Source of the DNA: Schmidtea polychroa
Lineage: Eukaryota
Assembly (NCBI GenBank): GCA_044892525.1
Contig: CM097885.1
Location: forward strand, 31,498,001-31,562,000
Length of the DNA stretch: 64,000 nucleotides
Direction: 5' to 3'
This document shows positions 1,945 through 62,104 of this stretch, in pieces; the first letter of the stretch is position 1, and every line of letters begins with the position of its first letter. A program made the position numbers and the translations under genes. Below the pieces are notes generated by a model. It was not told the DNA's origin. It worked only from the letters and a program-made list of their open reading frames with translations, and did no database searches.

Positions 1945-3785
1945 TCCCCCCTCGGAACTTATTGTGTTTATGCTATGACTTAAATTGCGATTTTGCGTTT
2001 TCTTATCTATCGACAATGATCCTGAACTTAATCATATTTATTGACACTGATCCTGATTGATCTCCATATTTTAATCCTAGCACGACGAAAGGGACTCATT
2101 TATTCTGGGCATGTATAGTGGACTTATCTATATTATGTATACAGTGCATCCCTTATCTATATACTACATTATTACCTTATCATAACCGGCTATGGAACAT
2201 TGTTAAACCACGTTTGATGCTTGAGTCTTAGACTCGGCGCCCTATGAATGATATGTAAAATCCTTTTATAATGAAGGGATGGGAAGTTTTCCCTTTATGC
2301 TTTAATTGGCCTGTAATGTTATAAACCATTAAAATAAACTTTTCCTAGTGCTACGAATCATTATCAAAGCTACAAATGGATTTAATCATTATTCCAAGCG
2401 CCCAAAAGTTAGCAAGAAGCACCCACAACCATAAACTGGGAATCACAAACCCACCCAAGTAGCCAGGTGGATGGCATCGAAAAAGTCAACAGCCTAATCA
2501 AACCCAAAAAACCAAACGAAACTAATTCTCAGATAAAAATTTAAAAAAACGTATCATCGCGATATCGTCTACTAAATTGCAAATCCTTAAAATACCTTGG
2601 ACATGAAATGTTGAATATGATACGACAAATTCTTCCAAAGAAAGACGTCATATGCCCACCGAATAAATGCTATCGGTCTAAAATGTTCAGCCATCGTCAT
2701 TGCGATATATGAAGCACCCGATTGTTGTAATCCATATAGTTAAATCCATCTTTAAATCCATCTTTAAATTTCGCAGCAAAAATCTTGAAACCAACAATAT
2801 ATATTTAATCAAAGAATTTATAAATAAAAAGTTTTAATTATTTACAAAAACTGCCAACTCCAAATTATTTAAACAAAAAAGATATCTAACTCATATGAAA
2901 TTTTCCAAATATGACTCAAAAAGAAAATCCATTCCAGCTTCATCAAAATGCTTCGACCCAGAAAAATCGGATACGAATTTTTATTTGTTGATTTGTGAAA
3001 AAGTTCTTGTTCTTTTATAACCAGTTGCCGTTTTTTGCGTTGAATTTGTGTGGATCATATTTTAAAGTATAGTAATAATTATTTATTAAATTATTTATTA
3101 AATTATTAAATTAAGAAGTAAAAAAACTAATTATTTATAAACCCAAAGTAAATTAAATTATGTAATATATAATAGGAACGCGTAGATAGAAAATTGAATT
3201 GGGTCTTAGTGAATGGTGATAATACTCAACTTTATAACTACGTACTATTTGAAATTTCGTACTATTATGAAATGCCTGTAAGCAAACCTGACTCTGTTTC
3301 TCCTTATGTAAACAAGTAGTCACGCTAATTAGACGCTGCTACATTTTGCTTGTAAACAAATTTTTCTGGGTCAACCATGTGGTGGGTTACTGGTGGTTGA
3401 ATGATTAAGTGCTGTTACCAGCGTAACCCAAAATACAACGTTAGTGTTTCCACTTGGTACCCGTTGAGTAATCAACGTTGGTACTGTACCAAGGGGTGAG
3501 TACTCGCAAAAAGTGAGCGCATCAAGGCACTATAATTGTCGAGCACTCTATGGGTTCACGGACTACCGTTAGAAGGTGTGTGTCCGATTTCTTCAGGTCC
3601 CTTATCAAAATTGTTTTCCCAACCTTATGCACAAACTCTCGCTTCTCAGGCAATCATAAAATTTATCAGACATTATTTTAACGCTACAAAATATGTATTA
3701 TTTTAACAACAAGCAAAGAAATATCCTTTTAGTACTACCAGGTATATAAAGCACACTACAGAAATACATAACACGAAATAAAAGT

Positions 3786-4256
3786 TCAACTTGACCGGTT
3801 GGTGGGGCCGGTTAGTCCCGTCGTAGACATTTGTGATGAACCCGCTTGCCTTTCGTACTCGGCAAGTCTGGCCTTCTTTAATTTTTCACGGATGTTTCGC
3901 CCCAGTCGCTTTCTTTTGGGCTTATCTTTCGCGGCCGGAGGGTAAATTGCTGCCAGCTCCACGGTCAACGGCCGGATTTGACTTATTGTGGCTCCATGAA
4001 CCGCTTGTTCATTGCGTTCGGTTTCTAACGCGCGGAGTTGGAGCTTCAAGGCCCGGATCTTCATCCGATCCTGCGCGGCTTGGGTCTGCAGTTGGAGGAC
4101 CTGCGCCACCTTCTTTTTCATATCCTGGGGACTAAACCAAGTGCTTTCTAGTTCCCGGCACCGTCCCTTGAGTCTGTCCACTCGGACTCGGAGATCCTCG
4201 GCCTGTTTTTGTGCTTCTTCCCTGTCCTTCCGTAGGTTCTCCAATAGTTTGAACAC
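3786..4256 (-). CDS. Coiled-coil protein, ORF2 of unclassified element (begins at a probable splice acceptor)
   Basis: Homologous to 61164..61673 (LLENLRKDRE, TWFSP, IRPL.VELA.IYPPA, KPKRKRLGRN); GC-rich relative to flanks; both copies are preceded by a pyrimidine tract and AG. Confidence 0.65.
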   Translation of the reverse strand: MFKLLENLRKDREEAQKQAEDLRVRVDRLKGRCRELESTWFSPQDMKKKVAQVLQLQTQAAQDRMKIRALKLQLRALETERNEQAVHGATISQIRPLTVELAAIYPPAAKDKPKRKRLGRNIREKLKKARLAEYERQAGSSQMSTTGLTGPTNRSS

Positions 4257-4493
4257 TAAAAGAAATATTCTTAGATTATGTTATTACACCATGATATTCG
4301 CTTGATAAGATCGGTACTGGTTATAAAGACATTTTATGATTATTGAAGACCAACCCATTTTTACGATAATTTATTAAAGAAGAAACTCATTCGAAGTAAA
4401 GTTCATCATCAAATCAAATCTTATTAATTCATTACAGAGGAGATTTGTTCAGAGTAAAGTTCATGTCTATCGCGAGTTAGAATTGAGGACGAG

Positions 4494-4859
4494 TTAGGCC
4501 GGGTACTTGCAAGGCCTCCCCCTTTTTCGAGGGGTCGTCTCGGCCTCCTCCAGGTCCTCCAGAGTCTTTTCTTCTCGGATTGCCCGGATTTGCATGTCGA
4601 GTTTCTTCAGTCGCATCTGGGCCGCGTCCACCTCGACGGCCGCTCGGTCGCGGGCCTCCTGTAAAAGGTCGTTTCCCGGCTCCTCCTTCACCCACGCCGG
4701 GGCATCTACTTCGGGGCCCTTCCGGATCACTCGATCTGTGCAGTCCAGGTCCCGTCCCTGACTCCACCGATGGATGTGGTACCAAATGTACCGGGTCCGG
4801 AGTCGGGTGATCGTCTGCCGATCGGCTTCTTCGATGCTGCTGCTGTCAGAGTAGGACAT
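4494..4859 (-). CDS. AT-hook/coiled-coil protein, ORF1 of unclassified element
   Basis: Homologous to 60490..60852 (ITRLRTRYIWY, DAPAWVK, EARDRAA); C-terminal RKRGRP AT-hook-like motif. Confidence 0.7.
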   Translation of the reverse strand: MSYSDSSSIEEADRQTITRLRTRYIWYHIHRWSQGRDLDCTDRVIRKGPEVDAPAWVKEEPGNDLLQEARDRAAVEVDAAQMRLKKLDMQIRAIREEKTLEDLEEAETTPRKRGRPCKYPA

Positions 4860-5389
4860 TTCTGCAAAGTAACAATCAGGTCACTTTATACAGATTATGT
4901 TACGAAGTTAAACACGGGATTTTGTTAATCTCTTTTCCCCCCTTTTTAAAAATTCAACGTTAACGAAAAAGAAAATTCTTTATTTTCCAGCTAACACATA
5001 TAGGCCTAAGAACAATAGATTATAATCACATTCATTATCAACTAGATTAAAAAGGAATTTCGTCGACAATCCGTTTGTTTAAATTAATCATTTACATTCC
5101 AGAATTTGTTTACCACTAAGTGGTAATTTTAATTACTATTTATAAATTTTAGTTCATACTTGAATAAAATGTAAAGTTTTTGGATCATCATTTTTAGGCC
5201 ACTAAATTCGGGCACGCTGGGGCGACAGGTGCTAGCAACGAACTAAGCTCTTCGTCTGCTTACCTTTCCTTCGGTTGTGCTCGTTATGAGTGGTTTGCTC
5301 TGCATACAAGTAATTTATTTAATTTGCTAATTTCTAAATTTCCAGGTGATCGATATCGGATTGGGATATCGATTTTTTTTGTAGTTAAC

Positions 5390-5544
5390 TGTAATAATAA
5401 TAATACCAATAATAATAACAATGAAGTAACGATACTAATAATAATAATAATAATAATGATAATAATAATATTAATATTAATAATGGCAATGATATTAATA
5501 ATAATAAGAATAATAATAAAATTTAATAATGGTAATGATAATGG

Positions 5545-5577
<33 letters not shown>

Positions 5578-5767
5578 CAAGAATAATAATAAATTTTTAT
5601 AATGGTACTGATAATGATGATAATAATAATAATGCTAATTATGATATTCATAATAATGATAATAATAATAATAACAAGAATAATAATAAATTTTTATAAT
5701 GGTACTGATAATGATGATAATAATAATAATGCTAATTATGATATTCATAATAATGATAATAATAATA

Positions 5768-5824
<57 letters not shown>

Positions 5825-5915
5825 GAATAATAATACTAATAGTAATGATAATGTTGATACTGTTAATAGTAATAATAAGGGAAATGATCCGGATTATGAT
5901 AACTATAATTTTATA
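5390..5915. repeat. Degenerate (AAT)n microsatellite region with an internal duplication
   Basis: AAT runs; the segment aacaagaataataataaatttttataatggtactgataatgatg occurs twice. Confidence 0.9.
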
Positions 5916-6374
5916 ATCCCATGTTTTAGAATTATAAATTTATGTTTTATAATTTGTACTTTGATAATTTTCGATTTATAATTTGAAATTTTTCAATTTA
6001 GGGATTTACAATCTTGTAATTTATAATTATAATTTCATATTTTGAAATTTATACATTCATATTTTATAAGTCATAATTGCTTAACTTATAATTTATAAGT
6101 TTATAATCTAAAATTTGTACTTTTGTATTTTGTAATTCGTATTTTCATACTTTATAATTTGAAATTTTTAGTCGACGGAATATACTTCTTACAACTTTCT
6201 TTCTATGATCAACATTGTTTTCCGCAGTACTTACAGATTTCCTGGTCCTATTTGTGGATTAAACTTCAGAGTTCTAGCGCGTCTATCGCCTATCTGTAAC
6301 CAATCCTAAGTTGATTTTTATACGAAAAATTGTTTGCTACTATCTCTGATCAGACTTTCTCCATTAACAATTTA

Positions 6375-7561
6375 AGTAGTAAGATGTGTCACCTCCAGGA
6401 CATGTCACCTCCAGGACACATATATAAGTAGGTCAAGTTAAAATTAAGTAGATCAAGTTAAAATTATGTAGGTCACGACTATATAGGTATTAAAATATGT
6501 AGGTCAAGTTACTTTAAATATATGTTACCTCCAGGACACTATATAAATAAATAAGTCAAATTAAGTAGGTCACGACTATATAGTTTATAAAAAATATGTA
6601 GGTCAAGTTATTTTTAACATGTATCCCTATAATATATACATCATTCAAAAGATATTTGAGAGTAGAGTACAATGATCATACCTTCAAAGGTGTATGGTGA
6701 ATCCCTAACCTTCAAAAGGTGCAAAACCCTCGAATTTTTTCAAACTCTATAATACATGTCATTCAAAAGGTAATTGAGATGTGAGTATGATGGTCATACA
6801 ATCAAAGGTGTATGGTGAGTCCTTCACCTTCAAAGGGTCAAAAAATTTCGAATTTTTTCAAACTTTATAATATATATACATCATTCAAAAGGTATTTGAG
6901 AGTAGAGTGTGATGGTCAAACCTTCAAAGATGTATGGTGAGTCCTTACCCTCAAGTGTCAAAAACTTTGATTTTTATTCAAACTGTAAATTGATCATTTC
7001 AACAAATCTTTCAATCCCCAAAATAAATTTCCCAACTCAAAAATTTCCCAAATTTTAAAAATTCCCAAAAACAATTTTCCCAACTCAAATTTTTTCAAAA
7101 ATTAAAAAGTCCCAAAAATGAAATTCCCCAAATTTCCCAACTCAAAATTTTTCAAATTTTAAAAAGTTTTCAAAACTATTTTCCCAAATTTTCCAACAAA
7201 ATAGTAAAAGAATGTTTTACAATTTTTTTTTTTCCTCGAATACATCAAACCAAAAATTTAACAAGGTTCGTCACACAAATCTAATTTTGAAATCAAACAA
7301 ATGAATTTAATAAAAATTAAAATCATCGACATACACAACCGCCGCCCGCTCGCCCGCCCGCCGCCCGCCGCCCGCCCCGAAGGGGCTGGGCGGTAGTTTG
7401 TAAATTTGGTTTATTTTGAATATTATTATTTGATACATAGTTTTATTATTTACAATATTCAAAGTATTAATAACAAAGGTAAAGAAATAAATGTTTATTA
7501 AATGTATATAGTATGATACTCATTAATATACATTGAACATGCTTTACATTTGCGAACATTT
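6375..7561 (+). repeat. Left TIR of Polinton-1
   Basis: Reverse complement of 21418-22559. Contains TAGGTCA repeats, three tandem units of about 120 bp (6628-6990), TTCCCAA repeats and a GC hairpin. Confidence 0.95.
6421..6606 (+). promoter_or_regulatory. Array of ROR/Rev-erb-type nuclear receptor monomer sites (AT-rich + TAGGTCA)
   Basis: Five W-rich-GTAGGTCA copies (6424, 6464, 6495, 6561, 6594) plus one TAGATCA variant; mirrored in the right TIR. Function is inferred. Confidence 0.45.
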
Positions 7562-8055
7562 GAATCATGGCATTTAGAACATACAATTACATGTCCGCAA
7601 GGTAAAAACAAAACCGATACTTGATTTTCTTTACAAATGTAACAAGTTAAATACATTTTCCTACCATCATTGAGTTTTTTCCTTAGCTTATTTTCAATCA
7701 ATTCGGATTTCGATATCCATTCATAAATCAATCTACTACTATATCCTGGTTCCAGCCTTAAATCCATACAATTCCAAAAGCATTCATTCAATGAATCATT
7801 ATCTACTATTGCTTTGTCTAAATGCATCAAATAAATCGATAACTTCAAAATGCATTCATTGTAATTAAATAAATCAATCAAATATCCAATGGAGGAATGT
7901 TTGAAAATTTCTAAAATTTTTATGGTTTCCTTTTCAGTGAGAGTATCATAATTGTTCATAAAATCTTCAACGGTGCAGTTTAAAAACTTGAATGATCTCG
8001 TGGTCATCAGTAATTTCTTAATAAATTTATGAAAATACTTATATTCTGCACACAT
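7498..8055 (-). CDS. IAP-type C3HC4 RING finger protein (putative E3 ligase)
   Basis: C-terminal CYICKENQVSVLFLPCGHVIVCSKC...CKAC; homolog at 47259..47750. Confidence 0.85.
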   Translation of the reverse strand: MCAEYKYFHKFIKKLLMTTRSFKFLNCTVEDFMNNYDTLTEKETIKILEIFKHSSIGYLIDLFNYNECILKLSIYLMHLDKAIVDNDSLNECFWNCMDLRLEPGYSSRLIYEWISKSELIENKLRKKLNDGRKMYLTCYICKENQVSVLFLPCGHVIVCSKCHDSNVRKCKACSMYINEYHTIYI

Positions 8056-8413
8056 TTATAAGAGATACATTAAAACAACTCATTTATTAAACAAGAAAAT
8101 AATTTAAAATCAATAATGGTAATTTTAAGGATTATCTTCGATAGATTTTATTGAATAATGGTTCATTAAAAAGGTCTTGAAGAGCTCTATCCAATGGTTA
8201 TATATTTGAAGATATAATGTTTGTGCACAATATAGTAAGTATTATTATTTTTATTATTATTTTTATTAACAAACTACATTCTAATAAAATACTTTTACAC
8301 ATCAAATTATTAAAAAAAAAAAAAAAAAAAACCGATAATTATAAAACGAAAAAGAGACTTTACAATAATTTCTATTTTACAAAAATTCAAACAAGTCCGA
8401 TCACAGAATTAAA

Positions 8414-11400
8414 TTAATCTTGTAGATGTTGATTGATGAGATCGGGATCTGCTCCTGATTGAATATCATTATCGTCATTATCAATGACATCAACCCCTAA
8501 ATAATGACCATATGCAAAACTAGAGTTTTTCTCTACCCAAGCTCTTTTATCATCATGATTAGTTAAAGCAATCTTTGAGTTTTTAAAGGTAAAAAGCTGA
8601 TGATTTCGGGTTCCTATTCTAGTCTGAGGTACAGAAATAACTGTGTTGTTGTTGTAACAGTCTAAATAAGATTGATGTTTTATATCTGTACCTGGTAATT
8701 TTACGCCCTTAGCTCTCATAGTAGATTTATTTCCTAAAAGACTGTAGCACTTTGGTCGCAAGAAAACCCACTCACTATATCCTACACCCTTACTCTCATC
8801 CTTAAACTTACCTATAACTGAGTCGAGTCTCCTAGAATATAAAGGATGAGAGGGATCATAATTTGAGGTGTCTAACAAGTCATCCGAAATCATCGCTGGC
8901 AAAAGAACGTCAAGCTTTACATTTTTGACCTCTAAGAAGAAACTATCGGTATCACCCGCAACTATATTTATATCACAGTTAAACTGACTCCTATATTTTG
9001 ATAATTCTATGTACTGTAATTGATACATCCTTAGTTTGGATAAATCCAGCACTGATTGTCCGATGTAGCTGGGTCTATCCAAACATATAGACTCCTTATT
9101 GAGATGTACACCAAAAAGATCATCATCAATTTTGATGGTTTTTCTAAATGATGGTTTTGATGAATATGTAATTAATTTTTCCGCGGAATTACATAGTCGT
9201 AAATTTAATCTCTTCTTAAGGTTTTCAACGGATTTACCGTACAAGCTATTATTATACAATTTGAATAAATCTCTGTACAGTTCACTGCTTGCTTCAGCTC
9301 TTAGCTGTGTATTTTTATTTATATAATTTTTAAAAATCGGTGCTTGCTTGAATTTTGTAGCTCTATGGATGTGTACAACTTTGGCACCAAGAGACAAATA
9401 AAGCTTGAGAAGCCTCCAATGAAGAACATGGTTCTTCTTTGGCCAATGCGTGAGCATCAACTTCTCAACTTTCGAACCAGGCGGGCACATTTTCTCAGGA
9501 GCAAGAGGAAAGTCATTTAAGAAATCATGAAAAATTTCTGGAATATCTATATCCACTTCTATGGTATAACCATAGGGAAGGATTTCAATGTCAGCATTCA
9601 TGCACTCAAGCAATACATCATTCAATCCATCATACACCCAAGTGAAATCAGCAAAAGGAAGATTTTGGCTAAGAGCCCAACCATACAGATTATTTATATC
9701 AATATATAATAATTCTGTATTATCCGAAGCAGCAACGTAATGTTTGTTAACAAATGTTAACCCACCACGTATTCCTCCTTCGTAAAAATTGAACATTTCC
9801 ATGTCCTGTAAAAGTTCTATAGGCTCAGTTAATGTCATAAGCGCTGAGGCCCATGACATACCCGGAATACCATAAAAGTTTAGAGGTTCTAGACCATTGT
9901 ATGCAATGGCCTTGGCACGAAATTGTTGGAAATAGTCCGCAAGGAGGAATACATCCAATTTTTGATAAGTTAACATATAGTCAGCCAATTTAGTACAACG
10001 TTGTTGAGTCCAAATAAGTTGAGCCTTAGCATACTCATCTTCAGTAACACCAGACCAAATAGGAGGCAATTCATAAGTGGTTTCAAGTACATCCAAATCA
10101 GTCGCATAATCATAAGGAAATATGGCTTTAGCATCTATTATTAACCTATCAAAAACCGACGAAGTCAAAGGAAGATCAGTTAGAGTTTTTACAGCCTTAG
10201 CCAAAGAACAATTAACAAATTGTATGCTGTCGATAAAACGAACAGCTAATTTTTTAATGTGAACAATCATCGAGATAAATTTTTCTGTGCTTGTGGGTAT
10301 TATATTCAAATTCCAAGAAGGAAAGCCATTGAGACCATATTTTAAAATATGGTGTAAGTCGTAGCCTCGTAAATTATGAAATACAATCGGCAGCTGTTTA
10401 TAAATTCTGCGAGCCATATTACATTTCCTACAGGCTGCACCGAGATAATTACCAGTAAAATGGTCATGATCTCGAACAGCAAGGGATAAAACCTTCTTGC
10501 AAAGATAGCAGTTCCTACAAGATTTGAATTGTCGTTCCTCAGCAAAAGTCATAGGTCCTAACCGTTTTTTCCCTTCAAGCTCATAATAAGGTAGGACAAT
10601 TGTGACAGCAATTTCCTCTACTTTTTTAAGAAATTGAGGTATACAATCAAGACCATAAAACTCGTAATACGATTTTCTATTGTTAAGATTATTTATTAAT
10701 AAAAGACCTGCTGAAATAGGTAAATGTATTTGATGATGTTTAACATCTTTAGGTAAAACCGATTCAAAATCGGCATAAATAACAAAGGGTGGGGTGATTC
10801 TCTTTGAATGATTTTGAAACTCTAAATATTTATTTTCGGGTAAAGTGTAAAGGGTTGTACCCGTTTGATTTTTACTGCATAGGGCCACATGTTTAGTGAA
10901 AGCATTGTCTAATCGAAAACCGTTAAGACAATGTGGGCACCATTTGCATCTTATTTGAATACTACAGTCATTATTACGATGGCAGTTCATTAAACGTGTA
11001 ATGTTGGTCACTGCGGTGTAATGATAATTATCCTTATTTTACAAGAGTAATAAATAAATTGGAGTACCGATAGTAACCGTTGATCTGTGAATTATACTTA
11101 AGTGGGGGTGTTTAAAAACATAGTCATTAGGAACCTGATCATCATCAACTATCACAGTAGGGGTATAAGCCAGAACATTTATGGCAAGATTTAAGTCTAA
11201 ATTTTTCTTTTCGAATTTAGGTATATTACACAATTTCATCGGACAATCCGTGACTTCATTGTAATTAAGAATATTTAAAAGATTTTCATATTTTGAAACT
11301 CTTTCAGGGTGGCTACCTATTTCATCTTTTTTCAAGAGCGCGAGAATACTATAAAGGAAACACTTATGATCCTTATTTTTAACATTAATAATTGCTCCTT

Positions 11401-12509
11401 TAGATTTCAAATCTGCGGGTGTACGAATGTAACTATGACCAGATAGGCGACAAATAGGAGCAAATTTAGTCAGAATGAAATCAATCTCTAAGATATTAAT
11501 TACTCTCCAGCCACTACCTAAATAGGTAAACTTTTCAATTTTTTCGTTTAACTTATTAACTCCCTCAATTAAAAAGTTATCCGAAAAGATCTCGGCGTTA
11601 TTTGAAAAGTAGTTGTCACGGATTTCCCCATCTTTTTCAAATCTTATAAGAATAGCGAATTGAATTTTGACGCTACCCATGTTATTTATTTCAGATGTTA
11701 ACTTTTCAGTGATTTTATCCGTTATTATAATTTTAATTAATTGTGAATCGGCAATATTAAATCGAATAGTTCGAATGGCGCCATTTAAATTTGATTCTAT
11801 TATCGGCTCAATCGCTAAAGATGATCCACCTATTTGATTTATAGTATTTATAGTATTATCATTATTTATATTTTCATTTATAGCATTTATAGTATCAATA
11901 TTATCATTTATAATATCATGATTTATAGTATATTTAATATTATTACATTCGTCATCACTGAGTAGAATGACTTCATTTTTAATAATTTCGTCGTCACTGA
12001 TCTCAATAACTTCAGTTTTTATAATTTTATTTTTAATTTTAGACACCCTATGTTCAGCAGGTCTTTTGTTAGATTTCTTTTTTGTGTTATTATTTAAAAT
12101 ATTTACAATTTCAATGTTATTCTTATTTATTATTTTAAACAGTTCTTGTTTATTTGTTTTGAAAGAATTTAAGTGCTGAGAATGTTGACTATAAAATTCC
12201 TTATACCTTACACTCTGGGAAGTTTTGCATATGGGGCAAATAAAAAAGTTGATGCCATTAAAAGGTTGGCGATAATATTTCTTCATATTTTTGTGGCATT
12301 TATTGTCATGACCCATAGACGAATTACAATATTTAGGATAAAATTTGCCTAATAAAAGTTAAATAATTATTTATTGAATGAAAATGTATTATTTATTTAA
12401 TAATAATAATAATAATAATAAATGTAATTTAATCTTTCATTTAAAATTTGTCTATAATATTATCAACTATAAAATAATTAGTTAATGTTAAATAATGCTA
12501 AGTTATTAA

Positions 12510-12596
<87 letters not shown>

Positions 12597-13229
12597 TACT
12601 ACTACTATTACAATTACTATTATAATTATTACTATTACAATTACTATTTTAATGATAACTGAAATAATTTACATAAAGTTATATTTACATTATATTTACA
12701 TAAAATCTATATTATTATTAAGTTATTAATTAATTAAAAACTATATATTAATAAAATGAAACATACATTTTGATTCGTTATTCGAAACTGAGTCCCCAAT
12801 AGGGATGGGAGCATTCAAATTATACGCAACGGAGGTATCCACTACTGCGGCATTTATTATTGGAAAATTCTTGTTATGAGAAACAGAAGATTCTAAAATG
12901 TTAATGGTAATACAATTTTAATTAAACTAATAAATTACCATTTTGGAATATGTTTGAAATATCTAATATGTCGTCATTTTCGGTAATTGCGGCCCAATCA
13001 CCAAAATAATTGTCTAAATAATAAAGATAATAATAATAATTAAAGTATTTATAATAATTATAAATATACCATTTCCATCATTTCCAGAACCTAATCGCCT
13101 ATTGAAGACTGACGAGTTAACGGTACGAGTTTCTAATTGTAAATTTAATTATTTAATATAAATAAATAAATAAAAATCCTTACCATTTCTCGAAAGAACC
13201 ACATTGATTTTAGTATTAATTGATGACAT
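8414..13229 (-). CDS. Protein-primed family B DNA polymerase (pPolB), spliced; one in-frame TAA at 11039-11041
   Basis: Motifs YADFES, FHNLRGYD, YIDINNLYG, KLYNNSLYGK, GDTDS, RPKCY; EndoVII-like insert CYLC..RDHDH..CRKCN. Predicted exons 13229-13184, 13132-13070, 13013-12939, 12892-12767, 12348-8414, all phase-1 GT-AG. Confidence 0.93.
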
Positions 13230-13393
13230 TTTAAAATTGTAATAAAATAATTATGATGAAATTTGTATTACAATTGTTTATAACGTGATAATATGCCTTT
13301 GTTAATCATGCACGGAGCATGCACCGTTCATGACGGACTTTGTTATTATTGTAATAATATAAAACATAATAATAATTATAAAAATAATAAAAC

Positions 13394-13437
<44 letters not shown>

Positions 13438-13488
13438 ACATAATAATAATTATAAAATAATAAAAACACATTTTTATAAAAACATTTA

Positions 13489-13892
13489 TTATTTAATAGA
13501 CATAAGCCATCCTAAACAATGTTGTCCGCACGTACGAGTTAAAGGGTGTTGATACATTGTTTTATTATATACAATAGGTTTGCCCATTGTTTGTAGTTTC
13601 GAAACCAATAAAGCAGGATAATAGAAACCCATAGGATCGAATACATGTATCTTATCTGGTTTCATATAGATTGCAATCCAATGCTCTCCGCCGAGATGAG
13701 ATGAATGGGTATTGACGATTATGGCTTGATTATTTTTCAAAAATGGTATTTTATCGAGAGGAAAAACTCCTAAAAATTCATTTCCTAATATTTGTTTTCC
13801 AATTCGATTAACCTGAACAGAACTATTTTAATAAATTAAACAGTATAAAAAACAACTTACTCCATGACAACTTTCTGTATTTCTGTATACAT
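13489..13892 (-). CDS. Adenain-like cysteine maturation protease (PRO), 38-nt intron 13823-13860
   Basis: GEHWIA, FDPMG and QHPLTRTCGQHC catalytic motifs; ATG directly follows the MCP stop; GTAAGT...TAG intron restores frame and is conserved in copy 2. Confidence 0.9.
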
Positions 13893-15116
13893 TTATACCA
13901 GAACGGTTCTATTTGCAGTAATTTGAACTTCATTTTCAAATACTCCATATATTATAACATGCACAGGTTCTGTAATAGCTTTTGCAAACTTTATATCTAA
14001 TCGTAAATTTCCATTTTGAGGTAATTGACTCTGATTCAAATCAAAATCTGGGGCCAAAACAAATGTAAAGAATGGATATTTGGTTTTGAATTCTTCAAGA
14101 GTTATGCCGCAATTCAAATTTTTATCTAAATATCCCATATTTCTAACAATACTCTGCATATATGTAGCACAGTAATTGTCACTATCGAAATCTTGAGTAT
14201 ATGTTTCTCGATAATCAGTATTTTTCGACAAAGTTAGAGATGTAACACCAAAGGTTTTGAAAATTGAGCTTGAGGCACTATATGAACCATTATATTGTGC
14301 TTCACCTTGAAATGTTACCAGAATAAAGTTTGGCATTCTTCTATCTCCAAATATTTGTTCCTTATAGAAGGAAGAAGCACCTTTGGCTATTGCAAATGAA
14401 ACAATTTCTTTTGTTTTCAGAGGATAGATTGCATGCTTAGAATTAAGACCCAACTGATGACCTGCTAATACCGACGGATCAACTCGAACTCTTCTTACTA
14501 GTAATTTTGCATCAACTAATTGACATATTGGTTGACCAGCACCACTAGTTAATGATAAAGAAGAATCGGTTCTTTTCAGTCTAATGTGTACATTGACTCC
14601 TGGAAGTAAATATTTTGGTTGATCCATAAAATCGAGTTGTAATGATGAACACATGGTGAAAATCTTTGAGCCTTTAATCCATTTTTTCCGTTCGTCATCA
14701 CTTGCTGCATAACCCATAGGAGTAAGACATGTATTTTTGGTGTCGGTATTATAATTTAAAATAGTTTCTATTATCGCCTTGTGGATATATGTATTGTTGC
14801 CACCTTCAATCTTGATATTATTAAATCCAAGAATAGCATCTTTAAAAAGTGTATGAAACAAAAAATTATTAGGTATTGTAGCATCAGCATCACCCAAAGC
14901 CTTTTTATCTTTATCTATAACCTTGATTTGAACAATCAATAAAGTATCATTCAAATCTAAATATTCTGTTTGAGAACCATTGATGTAAAATTCTACATCA
15001 TTTCTACTATCGGTAATTGAATTCATAGGAAAAACTTCCTCAAATGCCCCAAATTCTATTACAGCCTGGGGCGATGGTCTATCAAATATACATAATTCAG
15101 ATTTACCACAAATCAT
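13893..15116 (-). CDS. Major capsid protein (double jelly-roll, PY/hexon-like)
   Basis: SELCIF, VEFYING..YLDLNDT, QPKYLLPGVNVHIRLKR, GNLRLDIKFAK; size and position typical of Polinton MCP. Confidence 0.88.
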   Translation of the reverse strand: MICGKSELCIFDRPSPQAVIEFGAFEEVFPMNSITDSRNDVEFYINGSQTEYLDLNDTLLIVQIKVIDKDKKALGDADATIPNNFLFHTLFKDAILGFNNIKIEGGNNTYIHKAIIETILNYNTDTKNTCLTPMGYAASDDERKKWIKGSKIFTMCSSLQLDFMDQPKYLLPGVNVHIRLKRTDSSLSLTSGAGQPICQLVDAKLLVRRVRVDPSVLAGHQLGLNSKHAIYPLKTKEIVSFAIAKGASSFYKEQIFGDRRMPNFILVTFQGEAQYNGSYSASSSIFKTFGVTSLTLSKNTDYRETYTQDFDSDNYCATYMQSIVRNMGYLDKNLNCGITLEEFKTKYPFFTFVLAPDFDLNQSQLPQNGNLRLDIKFAKAITEPVHVIIYGVFENEVQITANRTVLV

Positions 15117-15475
15117 TTTGCAAATATAGTTCCATGTCCTTTCATTCGTTTGTTTATACGTGATATTCCATGTCTTTTACGTTTTGGAGCTGGACCTGGA
15201 GGCGTATCTTTTTGAAACATACCTGCAACCCCTGGTAAAACTTTCCCTAATTCAGCTAAAGCATTTGTTTTTAGAGATGGTAATATTTTCTGTTCATTCA
15301 TAATAACATCTTTTGCAGTTTTCATACCAAAACTACCAATACGTTTAAGAATAGGCAATGCAAATCTACCAATTGTTCTCAACCATCCCGATCCGTACTG
15401 TTTACCAATAAAATATGGTAATTCACCGCCAGATTGGCTATCACTATACATACTAATAATATCAGAATTAGCCAT
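15113..15475 (-). CDS. Small basic core/membrane-active virion protein (QxGG/QxGxG motifs plus amphipathic helix)
   Basis: QSGG and QYGSG followed by WLRTIGRFALPILKRIG; basic C-terminus; lies between mCP and MCP; conserved at 38113..38487. Confidence 0.65.
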   Translation of the reverse strand: MANSDIISMYSDSQSGGELPYFIGKQYGSGWLRTIGRFALPILKRIGSFGMKTAKDVIMNEQKILPSLKTNALAELGKVLPGVAGMFQKDTPPGPAPKRKRHGISRINKRMKGHGTIFAK

Positions 15476-16535
15476 CTACTTTACGAAAATGTAATGTCAA
15501 ATGAGTTTTTGAACCTTTTGGAAAGTTTATAAGTTTTCCACTATCATCACGAATATTTATTTCTATATTGTTTATACATGAACTTGCTATTGGTAAATAC
15601 ATGGGATTATCGATATTTATATTGACAACTTCATCATGTTCATATTTTCCAATCCATACCGATTTCAAAAGAGGAACACTGGAATCACCAACAATTATGG
15701 GCTCGATAATGTTAGTATATATGAACATTTGTTGATGATGTTCTAGTATTCTTGGTTTGCGTATACCAGTCGATTTTTCTCTATATATTTGCTTATCTAA
15801 TCCAAGTGAATTTGCCAAATTTTTATCAAATGTAACTTCGCAAATATCCTCATTCAAACTGAAGGTAAACATCAAATCTTTCACAATTTCCAAATTTTTA
15901 AATATGTGTGAACAATTGAACTTTAAATATTTAAGTAATACATCAAGTTTATCAAAATATAATTCATCAGCAAAGATGAATGATTCTTCAACTTCATCGT
16001 TATACGACACAGATATTTTGATTTCTTCTTTCACTATACTGTTTGCTTCAAATAGATTAAAACGTAATAAATACTCGGTCTCCATAACAATATTTTTCAG
16101 CTTATTGCAACCCATTCGTTTGGCATCTTCAATAGTTTCGAATGTTATTGTAAATGGTTTAAAATCACAACTGATATTTAATCCATCCTTGTAAAATATA
16201 TAGCAATGCGAATCTAATATTTGGTTCGGAATATGATATGTTTTATCATAATTACTAATAATAAAGATACCGCTACATGTTTTCACAATATTCCTTTTGA
16301 AATCAATCTTACATTGACTATAAAATGGGAATGTGTTGTACACGAATGTAAAATCTTGCAGTGCAACTTCCCAGTCACCATTTAAAGAAATCGGATTCTG
16401 GAGATTGACCATAAATTTACTGCCTTGATTGTCTGGATGAATTAATGGGCAACTATTGCTCGGTAAAATAGTATAAAAATTCACTTTACTAGGTCCTTTG
16501 CTGATATCCATGACGGGTTTTGATAACCATGCCAT
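15468..16535 (-). CDS. Minor capsid protein (penton, PX)
   Basis: N-terminal FYTILPSNS..L.GDWEVAL and C-terminal FIYTNIIEP..VGD..VPLLK..YLP..IEINIRDDSG..LTLHFRK. Confidence 0.88.
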   Translation of the reverse strand: MAWLSKPVMDISKGPSKVNFYTILPSNSCPLIHPDNQGSKFMVNLQNPISLNGDWEVALQDFTFVYNTFPFYSQCKIDFKRNIVKTCSGIFIISNYDKTYHIPNQILDSHCYIFYKDGLNISCDFKPFTITFETIEDAKRMGCNKLKNIVMETEYLLRFNLFEANSIVKEEIKISVSYNDEVEESFIFADELYFDKLDVLLKYLKFNCSHIFKNLEIVKDLMFTFSLNEDICEVTFDKNLANSLGLDKQIYREKSTGIRKPRILEHHQQMFIYTNIIEPIIVGDSSVPLLKSVWIGKYEHDEVVNINIDNPMYLPIASSCINNIEINIRDDSGKLINFPKGSKTHLTLHFRKVDG

Positions 16536-17110
16536 TTGACATAGTATTGTTTATCCTTGCCGACCTTTTTAGTTTTCAATATTTTTTGAATTCTAAATAC
16601 CTTTGGAGGAGGAATGACTTGTAATTCCTGCTCATAAAATTTCCCTTGTACAATATTATTATCACTGTCTTTGATGACATACATTACAGGATTCTGTTTA
16701 GTATTTATTTTTGAAATTACAAAGACTTCATCATTCCAATTTGTATCAAAATTTTTAATAAATGGTGATGCACTAATTTTACTAATTCTAACATGATCAC
16801 CGACTTTATATTTAGGTTTTGCAATTTTTACAGATTTCTTAGAATAGAATGTTTTTGATGTAATATCAACCGGTCTTAATCCATTCAGTCCTCGGTGTGA
16901 TGAATGATTATAACTTGTTATTATTTTCGGTAAAGCATTTACCCATTTTTTATTACCTTGATGCACGAACAATTTCTTTAATCTATCTCTCAATGTTCGA
17001 TTAAATCTTTCAACATGGGCAGCTTTGTATTGAGAATGTACCGAGTAGTGATTTATTTTCAGTTTATCGAGGACTTGCTTAACTTTGCTATTGTAGAATT
17101 CTTTACCTAA

Positions 17111-17172
<62 letters not shown>

Positions 17173-17633: not shown

Positions 17634-17636
17634 TGT

Positions 17637-18170: not shown

Positions 18171-18188
18171 TATTATTCATAGAGGTTT

Positions 18189-20602: not shown

Positions 20603-20674
20603 ATTTATTTAATACATCTTTATTAGTGTTTTGGTGTTTTTAAATCATTGAAAATAACTAAAGTTTCAAATTTA

Positions 20675-54727: not shown

Positions 54728-55829
54728 TTTTCCTTTTATTTCAATTCCAGATCCCCTAATAAATTTGTATGGAATTCTTATTTTTAATTGAGTTTATGAA
54801 TATTAATTAATAATAACATTGATTGAGCGATCTTGTACGACCTGGAAGTGGAAATGAAAATGGATATACAATACTGTTAGAAACGCGCCCGCTGCAATAC
54901 CAGACAACTTACGATTACAAGACCCTTTTTAGACAAAAAGAAATTCATGTTTACCTACCACCTATTTTAGCATATTTACCGAGGCCTTCATTTATATTTT
55001 ATCATTACAAGCTAAGTTATTAACCTCAATATGATCATTATACCTTTTATTAATTTGTATATTCTTATAACTAGAAAATGTTGTTTATTTTATTTTTTAT
55101 TTATTTTAATATTTACTATAACTAGAAAATGTTATTAATTTTTCATTTTTTTATTAGCTGAAAATGAAATAGTATTTGTTGTTTAAACGTTTATTTTTGA
55201 ATAAAGATTATTTGTCAAAAAAATATAGGTTGTGGGTCGGAAAAAGACGGCATTTAAAATTTGGGGTCGCAATACAGAAATGTTTAGGAAACGCTGATCT
55301 AGGTAGATAATGTGCCAATGGATTCAATGAAAAAAACAAAATTTTTTATATTTTTAGACCTCACCTATTTAACTGAAAAATACAGGGGTGTAAATTCGAA
55401 CATTGTTCCCACAAAACTCGGCCATTTATAAATGTTATTAATAGATATAGATAGTGCATAGATGTATTAGATATAGTTTATTTGGTATCAAACCTCGGTA
55501 TTTTATACATTATATATTTGAATGAAAAAATCTTTTGGTTTCAAATATCAAATTTAGTAGATTTAACCGACTACCAGAGTGTTTATGTTAGTAAATTTTG
55601 AGTCTGGGACATTGTCCGTTTATATTTCATTAATTGTGTATTCTCTAGAGTAAGTGAATGTAAAATTAATTATGTACATTTAATGTCAAAGAGTCATTTT
55701 AATTAAAATTTACCTATTTTCCCGACTACAATGAGTTCGGTACAATAGGCCCTATTTTCATGTGGGGTCATAGACCCTTAATTGCTATAGTTAATTCGTC
55801 CGCATAGCCACGACAACTATACACAAGTG

Positions 55830-56005
55830 AGTACTGGACAATTATAGTATTTGAAGCATGTTCACTTTTTGCCGCTACTCAAACCCTTGGTACAGTACCA
55901 AGGTAGATCACTCAACGGGTATCAAGCGGTCGACTTGATTGTATTCTGGGTTACGCTGGAAGCAGCACGACAGGGTAAAATGTTTGATTACCTGTAACCC
56001 ACTAC
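55830..56005 (+). repeat. Solo copy of the conserved 3' module of the unclassified element
   Basis: cccttggtacagtaccaa..ctcaacgggta..ttgtattctgggttacgctgg..gtaaccca. Confidence 0.75.
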
Positions 56006-56201: not shown

Positions 56202-58689
56202 CGCATTTGATTATCATAAAAAAAATTCATTTAGCTATGTCAAATAAACTTTGTTTTGGATTTTAGTTAATTTTAAGATTTTTTGTTAAAATAATGAATA
56301 AAGAAGTAAGATATTTATTTATTTATTATAATATACATTAAATTTTTCATAGTTCACCTAAAATATCAAGTATTTAGAGAAGAATCTTTAGTATGATTAT
56401 TAATATGATTTTTGAAATTATTGTGATCTGGTTTTCGAAGTTCCTCGTTAACTGCTTGGGATATTGCAGGAAATCATTCATTGAAAGTAAATCTGTCTGG
56501 TAAATCCATCAGCCGAAGAAACTTTAGTCCTTACCCCATTTTTAATTTTGCTCTACACTTTCGATGGGGTTCAAAAATGGATTATATGGCAACTTTTCTA
56601 TTTGAATAGTCAATGATATATTATTGTAAATGGATTAGCTAATCTTTGGATATTGAGACCTCGATTTGTTGGTATATTGTGTTGGGCTAGAACTGATTTT
56701 TAGACCCAAAATACTAATTGTGACTGAAATGTGTAGGTACACAGCAAGTAAAAAAGCACCAAGTATAGTTAAATAGTAAAAATACACCAAATAAACAATA
56801 TTAATTAAAGGAGAAAACAACAAAAGCATAAACACAAAAATTAAATAAAATTATACAAGAGCAAGAAGTTATGCAAAATCTAACTCAAAAATAACCGAAT
56901 AAACATAGAGTTACAAAAAACAAACTCGAATAACTTAAAAGATGGTAAAAACAGAAAAAAAAACCCAGAACATTCCATAAAAATGGCGATGACCATCATA
57001 AAAGCTACCTTAAACAATAAAAGTTAGAAAAATAAATAAATTAGTAATAAAAATAAAAATTCTTAAAAAGAAATTCATAAAACATCAATTAAAATAAAAA
57101 TTAAATTAAAAGTAATATAGAATGTTCTGGAACCGTTCCAAATCCATCATGGACGTAAAATTAATGAAAAATAATTAAAAATTTGAACTTTAGAAATAAA
57201 AACAAAAATTATGGCACAAAAATTGCCATTAAAAATATCAAAATCGCGAAATAGAAAATTCTGGAATAAAAAGAATTCGAGTTTGTTTAATGCATCAATA
57301 CATACACGTGTACAAAATAGGTATATATACTGACACGTTTCAGTCACAAGGATCACTTTTTATGCCAATATTTTTTTGAACGAAAATTTTGTCCAGAAAA
57401 CTAACAGTAAGTAGTTTTTCCTTTTTGATGTTCATCATTTTCATCATTGATATTAGTATTTTTATGTTTTGATTCATTAATGTAAATTATTTTAATGATT
57501 TTAATTGATTTTAATCTTCCACCTAACTTGTTTTTACCTTTTTCACTAATCAGCGACGTCTTAGTGCGTCGCTATTTAGTCCTGCATTTAATATTAATTT
57601 TTAACTAACAATTTCACAGGCAGACAGGCAATATCTTTTATATATTTTTTTTGTTCGGTCATCGGAGGTCGGCCACTTCATGGTTCTACCATGGAGTTGT
57701 GTCGATAAAACCCCTCCGCTATGGCTCCATATATTTATTTATCGGTCGACAGTGATGTTTCGACTCAACATTACAATAGGGCTTGTCGTAGCGGTCACAG
57801 TGGGGCCGTGTAAGCAAGCATTCTTCCCGAGTTCCAATGCAGTACACATTTAAAATCAACATTAAAAATTCCACACACTACTTCACACTAGGATCATAAT
57901 TGAGTAGATCTCAGACCCAAATTAAACACAGCAATTACAATTCAGTTAATGTAGTCGGTTGGGACCTCCCCACTTAGGTGTTGGACGAACATCGTTAGTA
58001 AATAAAAACTTTTTATCAATTAAAATTATAACTATAGATTATTTATAAAAGGGAAAATTTATAAATTACAAAATGGAATTTGTATATAAAGTGTAAATTA
58101 AAACATCCTATAACCGTGAATTCTAGATTATCTCATAAAATATAATCCTATGCTAAGTTCGAACCCTGGCTTACATATATGAGCGGCTATGTATAGATTA
58201 TATATGCACGATGATAATACAATACAGGCCTTAAACATAAGATACGACCTATAATTGGTAACTCTATCTCGATTATTAAGTGTAAATGATAAGTGGTTAT
58301 CTTAATTATAAAAATACAATCTAAAAAGAATTATACATAAAATTTTTATTACAGAAATATAATTTATATATATAACTTTGAATTTAAAATATAAAGTATA
58401 AATACTTATGGGAAATTATTAAACTATAATCTATAAAGAATTATACCCAAAATTTTATAAGAATATAAGTTCTCAATAGTTTTATGCAAATCCGAGTTTG
58501 AAAATATAACATATAAATGGTTATATGTAAATTACCAATGTATCTTGATTATACAATTCGATCTACAAATGGTTGTTCAAAAAATTTTTTGGCCATGAAA
58601 ATATAATTTCTAAATAGTTAGGTATGAATTTACATTTAGGGATATGAATTATAGATAGTTACATATGATCCTATATATACTTGGACCTT

Positions 58690-59560
58690 AAAAATATAAA
58701 CTATAAATAGTTAGGAAAAAATTTTTTACTTATAAAAATGTAAATTATAAATAATTATATAAAAATTTTGATTATAAAATATAAAGTATAAATAGTTATA
58801 TATAAATAAATAGTTATATATAAATTGTGTACGGATATGGATCATAAAAATATAAACTATAAATAGTTAGGAGTAAATTTTACTTATAAAAATATAAATT
58901 ATAATTAATTATATAAAATTTTTGATCATAAAATATAAAGTATAAATGGTCATATATAAACAATTATAAATAGTTATATATACATTAGATACGGATATCG
59001 ATCATAAAAATATACTCTATAAAAAGGTACGAATAAATTTTACTTATAAAAAATAAATTATAAATAATTATATAAATTTTTTTTTTATTATAAAATATAA
59101 AGTATAAATAGTTATATATAAGTAGTTACAAATGGTTATATATAAATTATATACAGTATCGATCATGGATCATAAAAATATACTCTATAAAAAGTTACAA
59201 ATAAATTTTACTTATAAAAATATAAATTATGAATAATTATGTGAAAATTTTTTTATTATAAAATATAAAGTATAAATAGTTATATATAAATAGTTATAAA
59301 TCGTTATATATAAATTATATACAGTTATTGATCATGAAAATATAATCTATAAATAGTTACGAATAAACTTTTCTTATGAAAACATAAATTATAAATAATT
59401 ATATAAAAATTTTGATTATAAAATATAAAGTATAAATGATTATATTTAAATTATAAACGTATATCGACCATAGAAATATAATCTGTAAATAGTTATGAAT
59501 AGATTTTACGTACAAAATATAAATTATAAATGATTATATATGAATTTTGATTGTAGATAG
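58690..59560. repeat. AT-rich degenerate tandem repeat, period roughly 160-190 bp
   Basis: Recurrent gatcataaaaatata..ctataaa..ttttacttataaaaa..ttataaaatataaagtataaatagttatat. Confidence 0.8.
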
Positions 59561-60489
59561 TTGATTATAAATTATATAGGTATATTGATGGTTACGATTT
59601 AATTTTACAAAAATATCAACTATAAGGGATTTTATATAAACTTGGATTGTAACAATATAATTTATAATTGGTAATATATGATACTGCATTACAAAGTAGT
59701 TCCAACAATTATCAGCATAAAATTAGTTCTGTATCACAAAATTTAGCTTACCTTGACAGTTGAGAAATTGTATATCCAAGCATTCAGTTTACAAATGTAA
59801 CAGTAGAATCCCAACTGAAATACCCAGCCATGATCAGGCTAATAATCTCCTTTGGAAGGAAAACTGCAGGGTGAACGGTACCGATGCAAACTCGGCACTG
59901 AATCTGCATGAAAATTGGGCATAAATCCACGATTGTAATATCAGCGTAGCATGGGTATTGAACTGATCCGGAGATAAAACAAACAACCAAAAATTTCTAA
60001 TAAGATGGTCACCCTGAACACGACAACCCCGTCTAAGTGAGGATGAGGTGGGAAACTAAGTTCCAACAGCTCACCCAGCACCGACGGAGCTGGTTGATTC
60101 GGAGGTCAAATTCAATTAACCTAAAATAAAATCTTATGTCAATGACATAACAAACTTTAAAAATGAATCATAAAATATCAATAATTAGATTAAATAAACA
60201 AAGTGAGATTTATTAATGATTTATATTTTTTTTTAAAGTTGAATTGCTGAATTAACCCTGTCAAATAGAATTAGATCTTCAGAAATCAATTTTGGTATTA
60301 TTTTTATTTAGCCATGGGTTTAGTGAGTTTTCGGCGGCACTGATCTAACAGTGGGAAAAGGAAAATTTTTTTTTATTTGATAAATTACATAACGGATTAA
60401 TAACCGAGATTTAAATTAATATACGCTCCATTCAGCAAAAGCAATCATTCCCCTACAAAAATCTCTTTTAATTGGGTTTATTTGGTAGA

Positions 60490-60852
60490 ATGTCCCAATC
60501 AAGCGAATCCGACGAAGTCGAATACCGGCAGATGATAACACGGCTCCGGACCCGGTACATATGGTATCGGATACACGACTGGAACCGGGGGTTGGACCTC
60601 GATAATTATGGTCCGGTCATCCGAAGTGGCCCAGAACCCGATGCCCCGGCGTGGGTGAAAGTAGAGCCCACCAACAACGTGCTCCGGGAAGCCCGCGATC
60701 GAGCGGCCGATGAGGTGGTGGAGGCCCAAAAGCGGCTGAGGAGACTCGAGCTCCAACTCAAAGCCGAAACACTGGGGGTAACTCTTGAAGAGCTGGAGGA
60801 GACCGACACCCCTCCACGAAAACGGGGAAGGCCCCGCAAGAACCTGGCCTAA
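60490..60852 (+). CDS. AT-hook/coiled-coil protein ORF1 (copy B)
   Basis: Ends PRKRGRPRK; homolog of 4494..4859. Confidence 0.7.
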   Translation: MSQSSESDEVEYRQMITRLRTRYIWYRIHDWNRGLDLDNYGPVIRSGPEPDAPAWVKVEPTNNVLREARDRAADEVVEAQKRLRRLELQLKAETLGVTLEELEETDTPPRKRGRPRKNLA

Positions 60853-61163
60853 CTCATCGACAGTCGCGGCTTGAATGGAATGGTTTTGACTGATTTCATC
60901 CAGTGATATTTTACCTTGTAGTAGCATAACGAATTGAATTTTTCTTTTGTTCATTAAATCTTGACAATATAGTCTATCGTGTATCTTCGTAGTGCAATAA
61001 ATTATTTTTTTTGCTATTACATTTTGGACTTTATAGCTAATGGGGTGTATTCATGATTGAGGTGACCCTTTTCTCATCACCCACTTATTAATTTCATGCA
61101 CGTACTCTAACTAACTTTGCGCACCTGGATGCGAGCGATGGAATTTATTATTATTTTCCTTCA

Positions 61164-61673
61164 GTGTACCAGTTACTTGAAAATCTACGAAAGGACCGCG
61201 AACAGGCCCAGCAACAATCCGAGGGTCTCCGAGGTCGGGTCGAAAAACTCAAGCTGAAGTATCGAGAACTCCAAGGTACTTGGTTCAGTCCAGCCGAGAT
61301 GAAGAAGCAGACGACCCACATCTCGCAACTCCAGACCCAGGCGGAGCAAGACCAACTCGAGATTCGAGCGTTGAGGCTTCAAGTACGCTCGCTCGAGAGC
61401 AAATTGAATGAAAAACTCATCCAGGACGCCCTCCAAGAGCAGATTCGGCCTCTTCAGGTGGAGTTAGCCAAAATATACCCACCAGCCCAGACAAGCAAGC
61501 CGAAACGTAAACGGCTCGGGCGGAATACCCGCGACAAATTGAAAAGGGCCTGGCTGGCCGAGCAGGAAAAGTTGAAAGAGACTGAAGCCAATCCACGACC
61601 CCGAGAGACGTTCGAGAGTGCGACCCTCCTGGGTAAACAAACTTTGCGGTTGTTTAAAACAAGGAATGGGTAG
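61164..61673 (+). CDS. Coiled-coil protein ORF2 (copy B)
   Basis: Homolog of 3786..4256; preceded by a ttttccttcAG acceptor. Confidence 0.65.
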   Translation: MYQLLENLRKDREQAQQQSEGLRGRVEKLKLKYRELQGTWFSPAEMKKQTTHISQLQTQAEQDQLEIRALRLQVRSLESKLNEKLIQDALQEQIRPLQVELAKIYPPAQTSKPKRKRLGRNTRDKLKRAWLAEQEKLKETEANPRPRETFESATLLGKQTLRLFKTRNG

Positions 61674-62104
61674 AAAGGCGTTTGGGGAAAAACAATCTCG
61701 ATGAGGGACCGAAACAAATCGGACACGTGCCTTCTATCGGCGTCCGTGAACCCATAGAGTGCTCGACAATTACAGTGCTTGATGCGCTCACTTTTTGCGA
61801 GTACTCAACCCCTTGGTACAGTACCAACGTTGATCGTTCAACGGGTACCAGGAGGAAAACAACGTTGTATTCTTGGTTACGCTGGTAACAGCACTTAAAT
61901 ATTCAACCACCAGTAACCCACCAATTGTTATAAATTCTATTGCCTACTCGTGATCTACCGAATCTCTTGTTCGTCCAATGTATTGAAGAGCATGTATTGA
62001 AGGGGACCACTACTATTGAAATTTTTTAAGGACGGTCTGATCCTATTAGAATACAAGAATGTTTGGTACCAATTATGATGGGGAATCTTCTTTTATTTCT
62101 AGAC

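Follow-up and report, generated by a model that had tools for sequence, protein, structure and literature searches.

A two-gene mobile unit in Schmidtea polychroa, probably a solo long terminal repeat of a giant Gypsy-type retrotransposon

Gypsy elements make up more than 90% of the long terminal repeat (LTR) elements in the planarian genera Dugesia and Schmidtea (10.64898/2025.12.11.693146). Planarian Burro elements of this type exceed 30 kb, with internal regions of up to 25 kb, and the LTRs of Ogre elements reach 6.5 kb (PMC6431247). Solo LTRs, which lack the internal region, are a standard product of such elements (PMC6839031), and the pattern TGTNR is found at the 5' ends of both Gypsy and Ginger elements (PMC2836005). 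In Cer1, a Gypsy element of Caenorhabditis elegans, unspliced RNA is exported with the help of a spliced protein, CERV (PMC10309623). Statements drawn from publications refer, here and below, to excerpts of them. In this study, a stretch of 64,000 nucleotides from S. polychroa (contig CM097885.1, positions 31,498,001 to 31,562,000), called the window, was analysed. It carries a 4.5-5.2 kb unit with two open reading frames, ORF1 and ORF2, and the two complete copies of this unit, A and B, are probably solo LTRs of a giant Gypsy-type LTR retrotransposon, Burro-like or other (rough probability 0.65). Solo LTRs are normally non-coding leftovers; what is unusual here is that the repeat contains two genes that are under selection and apparently spliced.

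Six related pieces lie within the window, to which all copy counts refer. Both complete copies have the termini TGTTGGG...CCCACCA, and each is bordered by a perfect 4-bp target-site duplication (TSD) that differs between the copies, CATG for A and ATTG for B, in unrelated flanking DNA. The chosen ends were the sole solution with a 4-bp duplication in both copies among 625 joint shifts of the end pairs, of which three others gave 3-mers. The background rate of a 4-mer match at fixed spacing was 480 in 58,690 per copy, corresponding to about 7e-5 for both copies. The unit is a real mobile insertion, and A and B are two independent insertions. Insertion by an integrase of the retroviral type is indicated by the TG...CA ends together with the differing 4-bp TSDs.

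A preliminary description of the same stretch had found A to be collinear with B once an inserted transposon, Polinton-1, is taken out. This was borne out: the blocks match in the order it gave, and Polinton-1 was recovered inside copy A as an insertion of 16,185 bp with a 6-bp TSD and the expected Polinton genes. The unit is the same as the one delimited there, with the 5' end moved inwards by two bases (true ends 24117/3380 and 56680/61923). With these ends TSDs appear where none had been visible, and the 11-bp imperfect inverted match reported for copy A resolves into the palindromic TSD CATG plus a 7-bp terminal inverted repeat (TIR). The partial copies placed at 27.0, 29 and 55.9 kb contain real 3' modules. 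Of the two identities then considered, a non-autonomous mobile element is supported by the independent insertion of A and B, each with TG...CA ends and its own TSD; an amplifying lineage-specific gene cassette, spread by duplication in the host, finds no support, given the precise ends, the unrelated flanks, the differing TSDs and the occurrence of ORF2 relatives in other records.

In copy C the promoter-like module at 25.7 kb is on the same strand as the 3' module at 27 kb (E 5e-6). A candidate 5' end for this copy (CGTT, then TG at 25205) is unlike the family 5' end, and no 5' block of copy D was found beyond a second Polinton, Polinton-2. GC-rich 14-bp tandem repeats occupy 25500-25670, just upstream of the promoter-like module of copy C. 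A TGTTGG located 13 bp upstream of B is a hint that this copy may lie inside an older related element.

The order in both complete copies is 5' block, hairpin block, spacer, ORF1, ORF2 and 3' module. Identity between A and B is 79% over the 5' block (minus strand 24117-22867 in A, 56680-57928 in B; E 0), 71% in ORF1, 67% in ORF2 and 89-90% in the 3' module. The central part of about 2.5 kb is unalignable (about 50% identity in a global alignment), and collinearity there rests on order and on a few short spacer matches, which occur to either side of the Polinton insertion. A and B agree at 614 of 666 sites of the 5' block and at 37 of 74 four-fold degenerate ORF sites (p 4e-18). On the map of an LTR element the 3' module is followed directly by the internal region and this by the 5' block, so that a single exchange of the middle cassette by template switching would explain this mosaic divergence. 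Alternatively, it could result from strong constraint on transposon ends. The GC content of the window is 31%; that of the ORFs is 52-61%, compared with 34% in a neighbouring host adenylyl cyclase gene.

Neither ORF is interrupted in A or B, as had been noted in the preliminary description, and the dN/dS check proposed there gave 0.27 for ORF1 and 0.13 for ORF2 in the comparison of A with B, a comparison of two sequences only with dS near saturation. Bootstrapped pN/pS ranged from 0.30 to 0.58 for ORF1 and from 0.24 to 0.44 for ORF2, and third codon positions are the most changed. Both ORFs are under purifying selection. They are not homologous to each other (1.5%). The motif PRKRGRP at the C terminus of ORF1, which we take to be an AT-hook core, was not reported by Pfam, and the structural model of ORF1 is weak (mean predicted confidence, pLDDT, 63; helices at 4-28 and 63-95). 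ORF2, of about 160-170 residues, was modelled as two long helices with a kink, followed by a third, basic helix in which 9 of 15 residues are Lys or Arg (pLDDT 79; predicted template-modelling score, pTM, 0.34).

A deep profile search against 1.84 billion representatives, covering ORF2 only, returned two relatives, P0121 (E 1e-27) and P0122 (E 3e-6); ORF1 was less thoroughly searched. The ORF2 family sequences are 29-58% identical, suggesting that the family is old. P0122 consists of a parvin-like CH domain followed by ORF2, joined exactly at the ORF2 exon start, and is probably a gene model that uses the acceptor of the element, an insertion having lent its acceptor to a host gene. The ORF2 splice acceptor can in this way create false host gene fusions in annotations. 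Pfam gave no informative match for either ORF, apart from one sub-threshold match to DUF5551 among four proteins, and a sequence search of the PDB was likewise uninformative. A word-based homologue search supported none of 75 candidates for ORF2 and none of 460 for ORF1, the latter longer proteins only. In the ESM Atlas no usable match to ORF1 and only unrelated coiled-coil clusters at 0.90-0.91 for ORF2 were found, and Foldseek gave no E value below 0.001 against viral and PDB structures.

A module with TATA-like and initiator-like (Inr-like) motifs is common to copies A, B and C and lies about 640 nt inside the element. A GTRAGT donor preceded by A, a motif with a frequency of 0.11 per kb, occupies corresponding positions in A and B, and each ORF in these two copies starts directly behind a pyrimidine-rich AG. 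Read unspliced or as predicted, the ORF2 exon start gives Val, an xTG codon, in all four distinct sequences (A, B, P0121 and P0122); copy D carries ATG at this position. The predicted start of ORF2 is probably an ATG split by the intron, with A contributed by the end of one exon and TG by the next. If the same donor were joined to the acceptor of ORF1, a short leader would precede the ATG of ORF1 itself. No AATAAA was found behind ORF2 in A or B. The flatworm spliced leader ends in ATG. As a source of the start codon it was rejected, being out of frame with both ORFs. In a search of sequencing runs, 11 of the 18 runs listed contain part of the stretch, four of them, all from one study, with at least half of its words, and no RNA run is among those listed.

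The GC-richer hairpin block lies about 250 nt behind the donor, and both this block and the 3' module fold better than shuffled sequences. Folding z-scores are lower on the ORF strand in seven of seven structured segments, strongly so in the hairpin block and weakly in copies C, D and E. Of the cells in an alignment of the five 3' modules, 93% are paired and nine carry double changes, a number that none of 500 shuffles attained; since these five related sequences also served to derive the structure, the covariation is supportive, not conclusive. The reverse strand of the 3' module has a similar consensus energy. Fold-back hairpins occur at both termini (3' z -1.5 in B, -2.7 in A, -0.1 in C and -2.7 in E); they are clear at the 5' end and at two of four 3' ends, and one of the four is no better than shuffles. 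Rfam gave no gathering match in the window and one chance match in 57250-62000.

The TG...CA ends, the 4-bp TSD, the TIR of 7-10 bp, the promoter-like block and the hairpins on the ORF strand together fit a solo LTR. The termini carry the short imperfect inverted repeat of such a repeat, the TSD falls within 4-6 bp, and the 5' end conforms to TGTNR. The unit is probably one LTR of a larger element rather than the whole element. No PBS (primer-binding site) follows any of the five 3' ends and no purine tract precedes either of the two 5' ends, as expected for solo LTRs and rival structures alike. A TGG two bases beyond copy A belongs to the TSD and was not accepted as a PBS. In the window no direct repeats were found paired around a PBS, gag, pol and polypurine tract (PPT), and no tRNA gene was found. 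The first and last 800 bp of the unit share no terminal direct repeat (best match E 0.27), unlike a terminal-repeat retrotransposon in miniature (TRIM) or a large retrotransposon derivative (LARD). Scans of IMG/VR viral contigs and JGI metagenomes for element-related DNA or loci were empty.

Several observations weigh against a solo LTR with two spliced regulatory genes. No gag, pol, PBS or PPT was found beside the five 3' ends or the two 5' ends examined, the 3' end is CCA rather than ACA and therefore mismatches within the TIR, and no TSD was assigned to copies C, D and E (C and E tested). The spacing from the TATA-like to the Inr-like motif is only about 20 nt, so that the start site is not established, and the conserved upstream ATG in the short exon is in different frames in A, B and C. 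A promoter 640 nt inside the repeat implies an R plus U5 region of 3.9-4.6 kb, which is unusual. Introns on the sense strand of an LTR must escape splicing in order to be copied, whereas movement at the DNA level needs no such escape. Folding z-scores were weak (-1.4 to -1.8) for three of the seven segments, and no homology or fold links the ORFs to Rev, CERV, Gag or any known protein. The limits given above for dS and for the covariation are to be added to these.

Since movement as DNA would retain introns without special means, the unit might instead be a whole non-autonomous DNA transposon, mobilized by a Ginger2-like integrase-type transposase and carrying two intron-containing passenger genes. 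Termini of the type TG...CA, the TGTNR pattern and TSDs of 4 bp also characterize Ginger1 and Ginger2, of which some contain introns (PMC2836005); the ends are also the best conserved parts of the unit. However, the TIRs are 40-270 bp in Ginger1, with CCGG or CCGT targets, and 50-180 bp in Ginger2, with RTATAY targets (PMC2836005), whereas the unit has no TIR of at least 40 bp, only one of 7-10 bp with mismatches, no transposase, and TSDs (CATG and ATTG, from two sites only) that fit neither preference. Its internal hairpins are strand-biased, a bias that a double-stranded DNA element does not need. This explanation appears unlikely.

A slimmer chance is given to the unit being a complete replicating satellite, with a hairpin at each end, a single-stranded intermediate and a borrowed Gypsy-type integrase, and no longer parent. 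Both ends do fold back into hairpins that include near-terminal bases, although one of the four 3' hairpins is no better than shuffles. The internal region is absent from both complete copies, with six related pieces in 64 kb, yet solo LTRs equally lack internal regions (PMC6839031). RNA starting 640 nt inside the unit could not restore the 5' block without a second repeat, and the Polinton integrase is excluded as helper by the type of ends and TSD (AG...CT and 6 bp in both Polintons).

Were the unit a pair of host genes multiplied by segmental duplication, or a domesticated cassette, the purifying selection, the canonical splice motifs and the relatives in other records would be accounted for; this is very improbable in view of the base-precise shared ends, the different TSDs, the unrelated flanks, the decayed copies D and F and the GC content of the ORFs relative to the adenylyl cyclase gene. 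A solo LTR of the BEL/Pao rather than the Gypsy type is rated just as low: BEL/Pao TSDs are usually 5-6 bp, that of the unit is 4 bp, and the ORFs match no host family. A Polinton/Maverick or a non-autonomous satellite of one was rejected because A and B lack AG...CT ends, long TIRs and a 6-bp TSD, and a Helitron or Helentron, which has no TSD and shows TC...CTRR ends or subterminal repeats in T-rich sites, does not accord with the 4-bp TSDs and TG...CA ends.

If the copies are solo LTRs, the following course of events could be proposed. A giant Gypsy-type element would integrate with a 4-bp TSD, and its long LTRs would recombine, leaving one LTR. The promoter about 640 nt inside the LTR would produce a short first exon, spliced either to ORF1 or to ORF2, with the ATG of ORF2 formed across the junction. 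ORF1 would encode an AT-hook-like protein that probably binds AT-rich DNA, such as the arrays of the LTR itself, and would act on transcription. The ORF2 product, a coiled coil with a Lys/Arg-rich helix, would most likely act in the manner of Rev and CERV and bind the structured RNA blocks. Strong splice sites in the element imply a need for a route to export unspliced RNA, and ORF2 would let unspliced genomic RNA survive and exit the nucleus. The unspliced RNA with its structured blocks would then serve as genome, the spliced mRNAs would yield two small regulators, and template switching between subfamilies would leave the ends far more alike than the ORFs. The transcriptional role of ORF1 and the export role of ORF2 are tentative hypotheses, weaker than the solo-LTR reading.

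A more doubtful extension is that a planarian retrotransposon lineage moved its whole regulatory kit into the LTR, so that solo LTRs would be intact two-gene expression units acting in trans on the family. One promoter and one donor would serve two alternative acceptors, giving the AT-hook protein and the Rev-like coiled coil, with structured RNA signals immediately downstream of the donor and in the 3' module. In its extreme form the unit would be the whole mobile entity, without a parent, and would represent a new kind of integrase-dependent satellite. An LTR that contains two spliced genes under selection would continue to produce regulatory proteins once the enzymes of the element are lost.

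Table 1. Features of the mobile unit and its copies in the window (positions are those of the whole stretch)
Feature	Position	Strand	Remarks
Copy A	3380..24117	-	Complete, 4,547 bp without Polinton-1; TSD CATG at 24121-24118 and 3379-3376
Copy B	56680..61923	+	Complete, 5,244 bp; TGTTGGG...CCCACCA; TSD ATTG at 56676-56679 and 61924-61927
Copy C	25674..27156	+	Promoter-like module at 25.7 kb and 3' module 26946-27156 ending CCCACCA; without ORFs
Copy D	28892..29703	-	Broken ORF2 (stops, frameshift), then 3' module; 5' part missing
Copy E	55829..56004	+	3' module alone
Copy F	62187..62436	+	Distant broken ORF2-like remnant just downstream of B; E 5e-4 against 0.6 for best reversed-sequence control
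A-rich 5' block (U3-like)	56680..57346	+	92% identical to A 24117-23440
5'-terminal hairpin, 11 bp	56680..56709	+	z -3.0 (B); A 24117-24088, z -5.1
Promoter-like module	57320..57412	+	TATA-like GGTATATATAC, Inr-like TCAGTC, short exon ending in A, donor GTAAGT at 57407; putative function, from motifs
Promoter-like module, copy A	23466-23380	-	Exon ending in A, donor GTGAGT at 23385
GC-richer hairpin block, predicted intron	57655..57835	+	z -2.8/-4.0 on ORF strand, +0.05/-1.6 on other; A 23150-22970
AT-rich tandem array, period about 162	58689..59552	+	Copy A: other AT-rich arrays at about 5392-6107
ORF1 of B	60490..60852	+	120 aa; helices and C-terminal PRKRGRP AT-hook-like motif; 1 nt behind AG acceptor
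ORF1 of A	4494..4859	-	121 aa; 62% identical to B; 2 nt behind AG acceptor
AATAAA, candidate poly(A) signal	60996..61001	+	Between the ORFs; A 4375-4370
ORF2 exon of B	61165..61673	+	Begins TG after pyrimidine-rich AG acceptor; long helices, WFxPxxM kink, Lys/Arg-rich helix
ORF2 exon of A	3786..4255	-	Acceptor position as in B; 57% identical to B
3' module (U5-like)	61686..61923	+	Hairpin cluster, covariation across five copies, ends CCCACCA; A 3620-3380
Polinton-1	6375..22559		In AT-rich spacer of copy A; 6-bp TSD AATTTA; pPolB, integrase, ATPase and TBP matches

The second Polinton in the window, Polinton-2 (30282-49106, about 18.8 kb), has AGTAG ends and the 6-bp TSD TTCGTC, is inverted relative to Polinton-1 and has several broken ORFs; genes shared by the two are 74-93% identical. 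In both, a short TBP-like gene stands head-to-head with the packaging ATPase gene (18932-19444 and 34277-34714; Pfam TBP E 3.5e-17 for the first), and an (AAT)n microsatellite, read as poly-Ile in the raw ORF and probably located in a small intron, occupies the same place in the integrase genes (17111-17186 and about 36442-36493). A RING-finger gene (IAP-like C3HC4) lies near the end of Polinton-1 (7498-8055, minus strand). An ORF of 166 residues in Polinton-2 (31337-31837, minus strand) has hydrophobic N and C termini around a coiled coil and a weak Fib_alpha match, and its predicted product looks like a secreted or membrane-anchored protein.

Among the other neighbours, the first 1,944 positions (1-1944, plus strand) contain the 3' part of a non-LTR retrotransposon with remnants resembling reverse transcriptase, a CCHC finger and, close to its end, a tandem duplication of 69 bp; its 350-residue ORF had no Pfam match. 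A decayed DDE_1 (pogo/Tigger-like) transposase lies between copies C and D (27786-28645, plus strand). By eye, 29860-29910 and 27450-27510, both on the minus strand, are alike (ACACG..GAGTCAGA..CCGAC..AAATTATCTA), a pair that BLAST did not report. The host adenylyl cyclase is of type 9 (51557-54727, minus strand; 1,056 residues) and has a long uninterrupted frame and its best named relatives in flukes and tapeworms. A host RRM protein gene, also with a long uninterrupted frame, is found at 63312-64000 on the minus strand; its product resembles RBMX2. Right behind remnant F, a Pro-rich ORF with a basic PRKRKR stretch (62354-62803, plus strand) may be the C-terminal part of the distant relative that this remnant represents.

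The element was not described in the literature searched, most subscription papers and Repbase being outside that search, nor in the excerpts of PMC11410931, PMC8532177, PMC13238120, PMC5408684 and PMC7251063; no description of two spliced genes wholly inside an LTR was found in the literature surveyed. Possibly the unit is a Burro LTR already known, in which the small genes were overlooked, Burro having been compared by description and not by sequence. It resembles Burro/GYPSM1 and Ogre in its multi-kilobase size, TG...CA ends, short TSD, tandem repeats and accessory coding capacity, and Burro/GYPSM1 also in its flatworm host (PMC6431247). The accessory ORFs described for Burro and Ogre, however, are located within the internal polyprotein region or upstream of it (PMC6431247), whereas both ORFs lie inside the putative LTR here.

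With CERV and human immunodeficiency virus (HIV) Rev the proposed system shares an accessory protein made from spliced mRNA, a zipper or coiled coil, a basic nuclear signal and a genomic RNA that keeps its splice sites (PMC10309623). CERV, in contrast, has 517 residues and is encoded by five exons spanning gag and the env position (PMC10309623), whereas ORF2 is about a third of that length or less and lies inside the putative LTR. The unit would be a compact test case for the export of unspliced RNA in invertebrate Gypsy elements, which in the literature surveyed, partly in excerpt, was found worked out only for Cer1 and CERV. The likeness of ORF2 to CERV is one of layout only, ORF2 showing a Lys/Arg-rich stretch and a helical model. 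Coding sequence inside an LTR, surviving in solo LTRs, is found in sag of mouse mammary tumour virus (MMTV) and in HIV nef. These genes occupy U3, with expression from the 3' LTR, whereas both ORFs of the present unit are located downstream of the LTR's own putative promoter.

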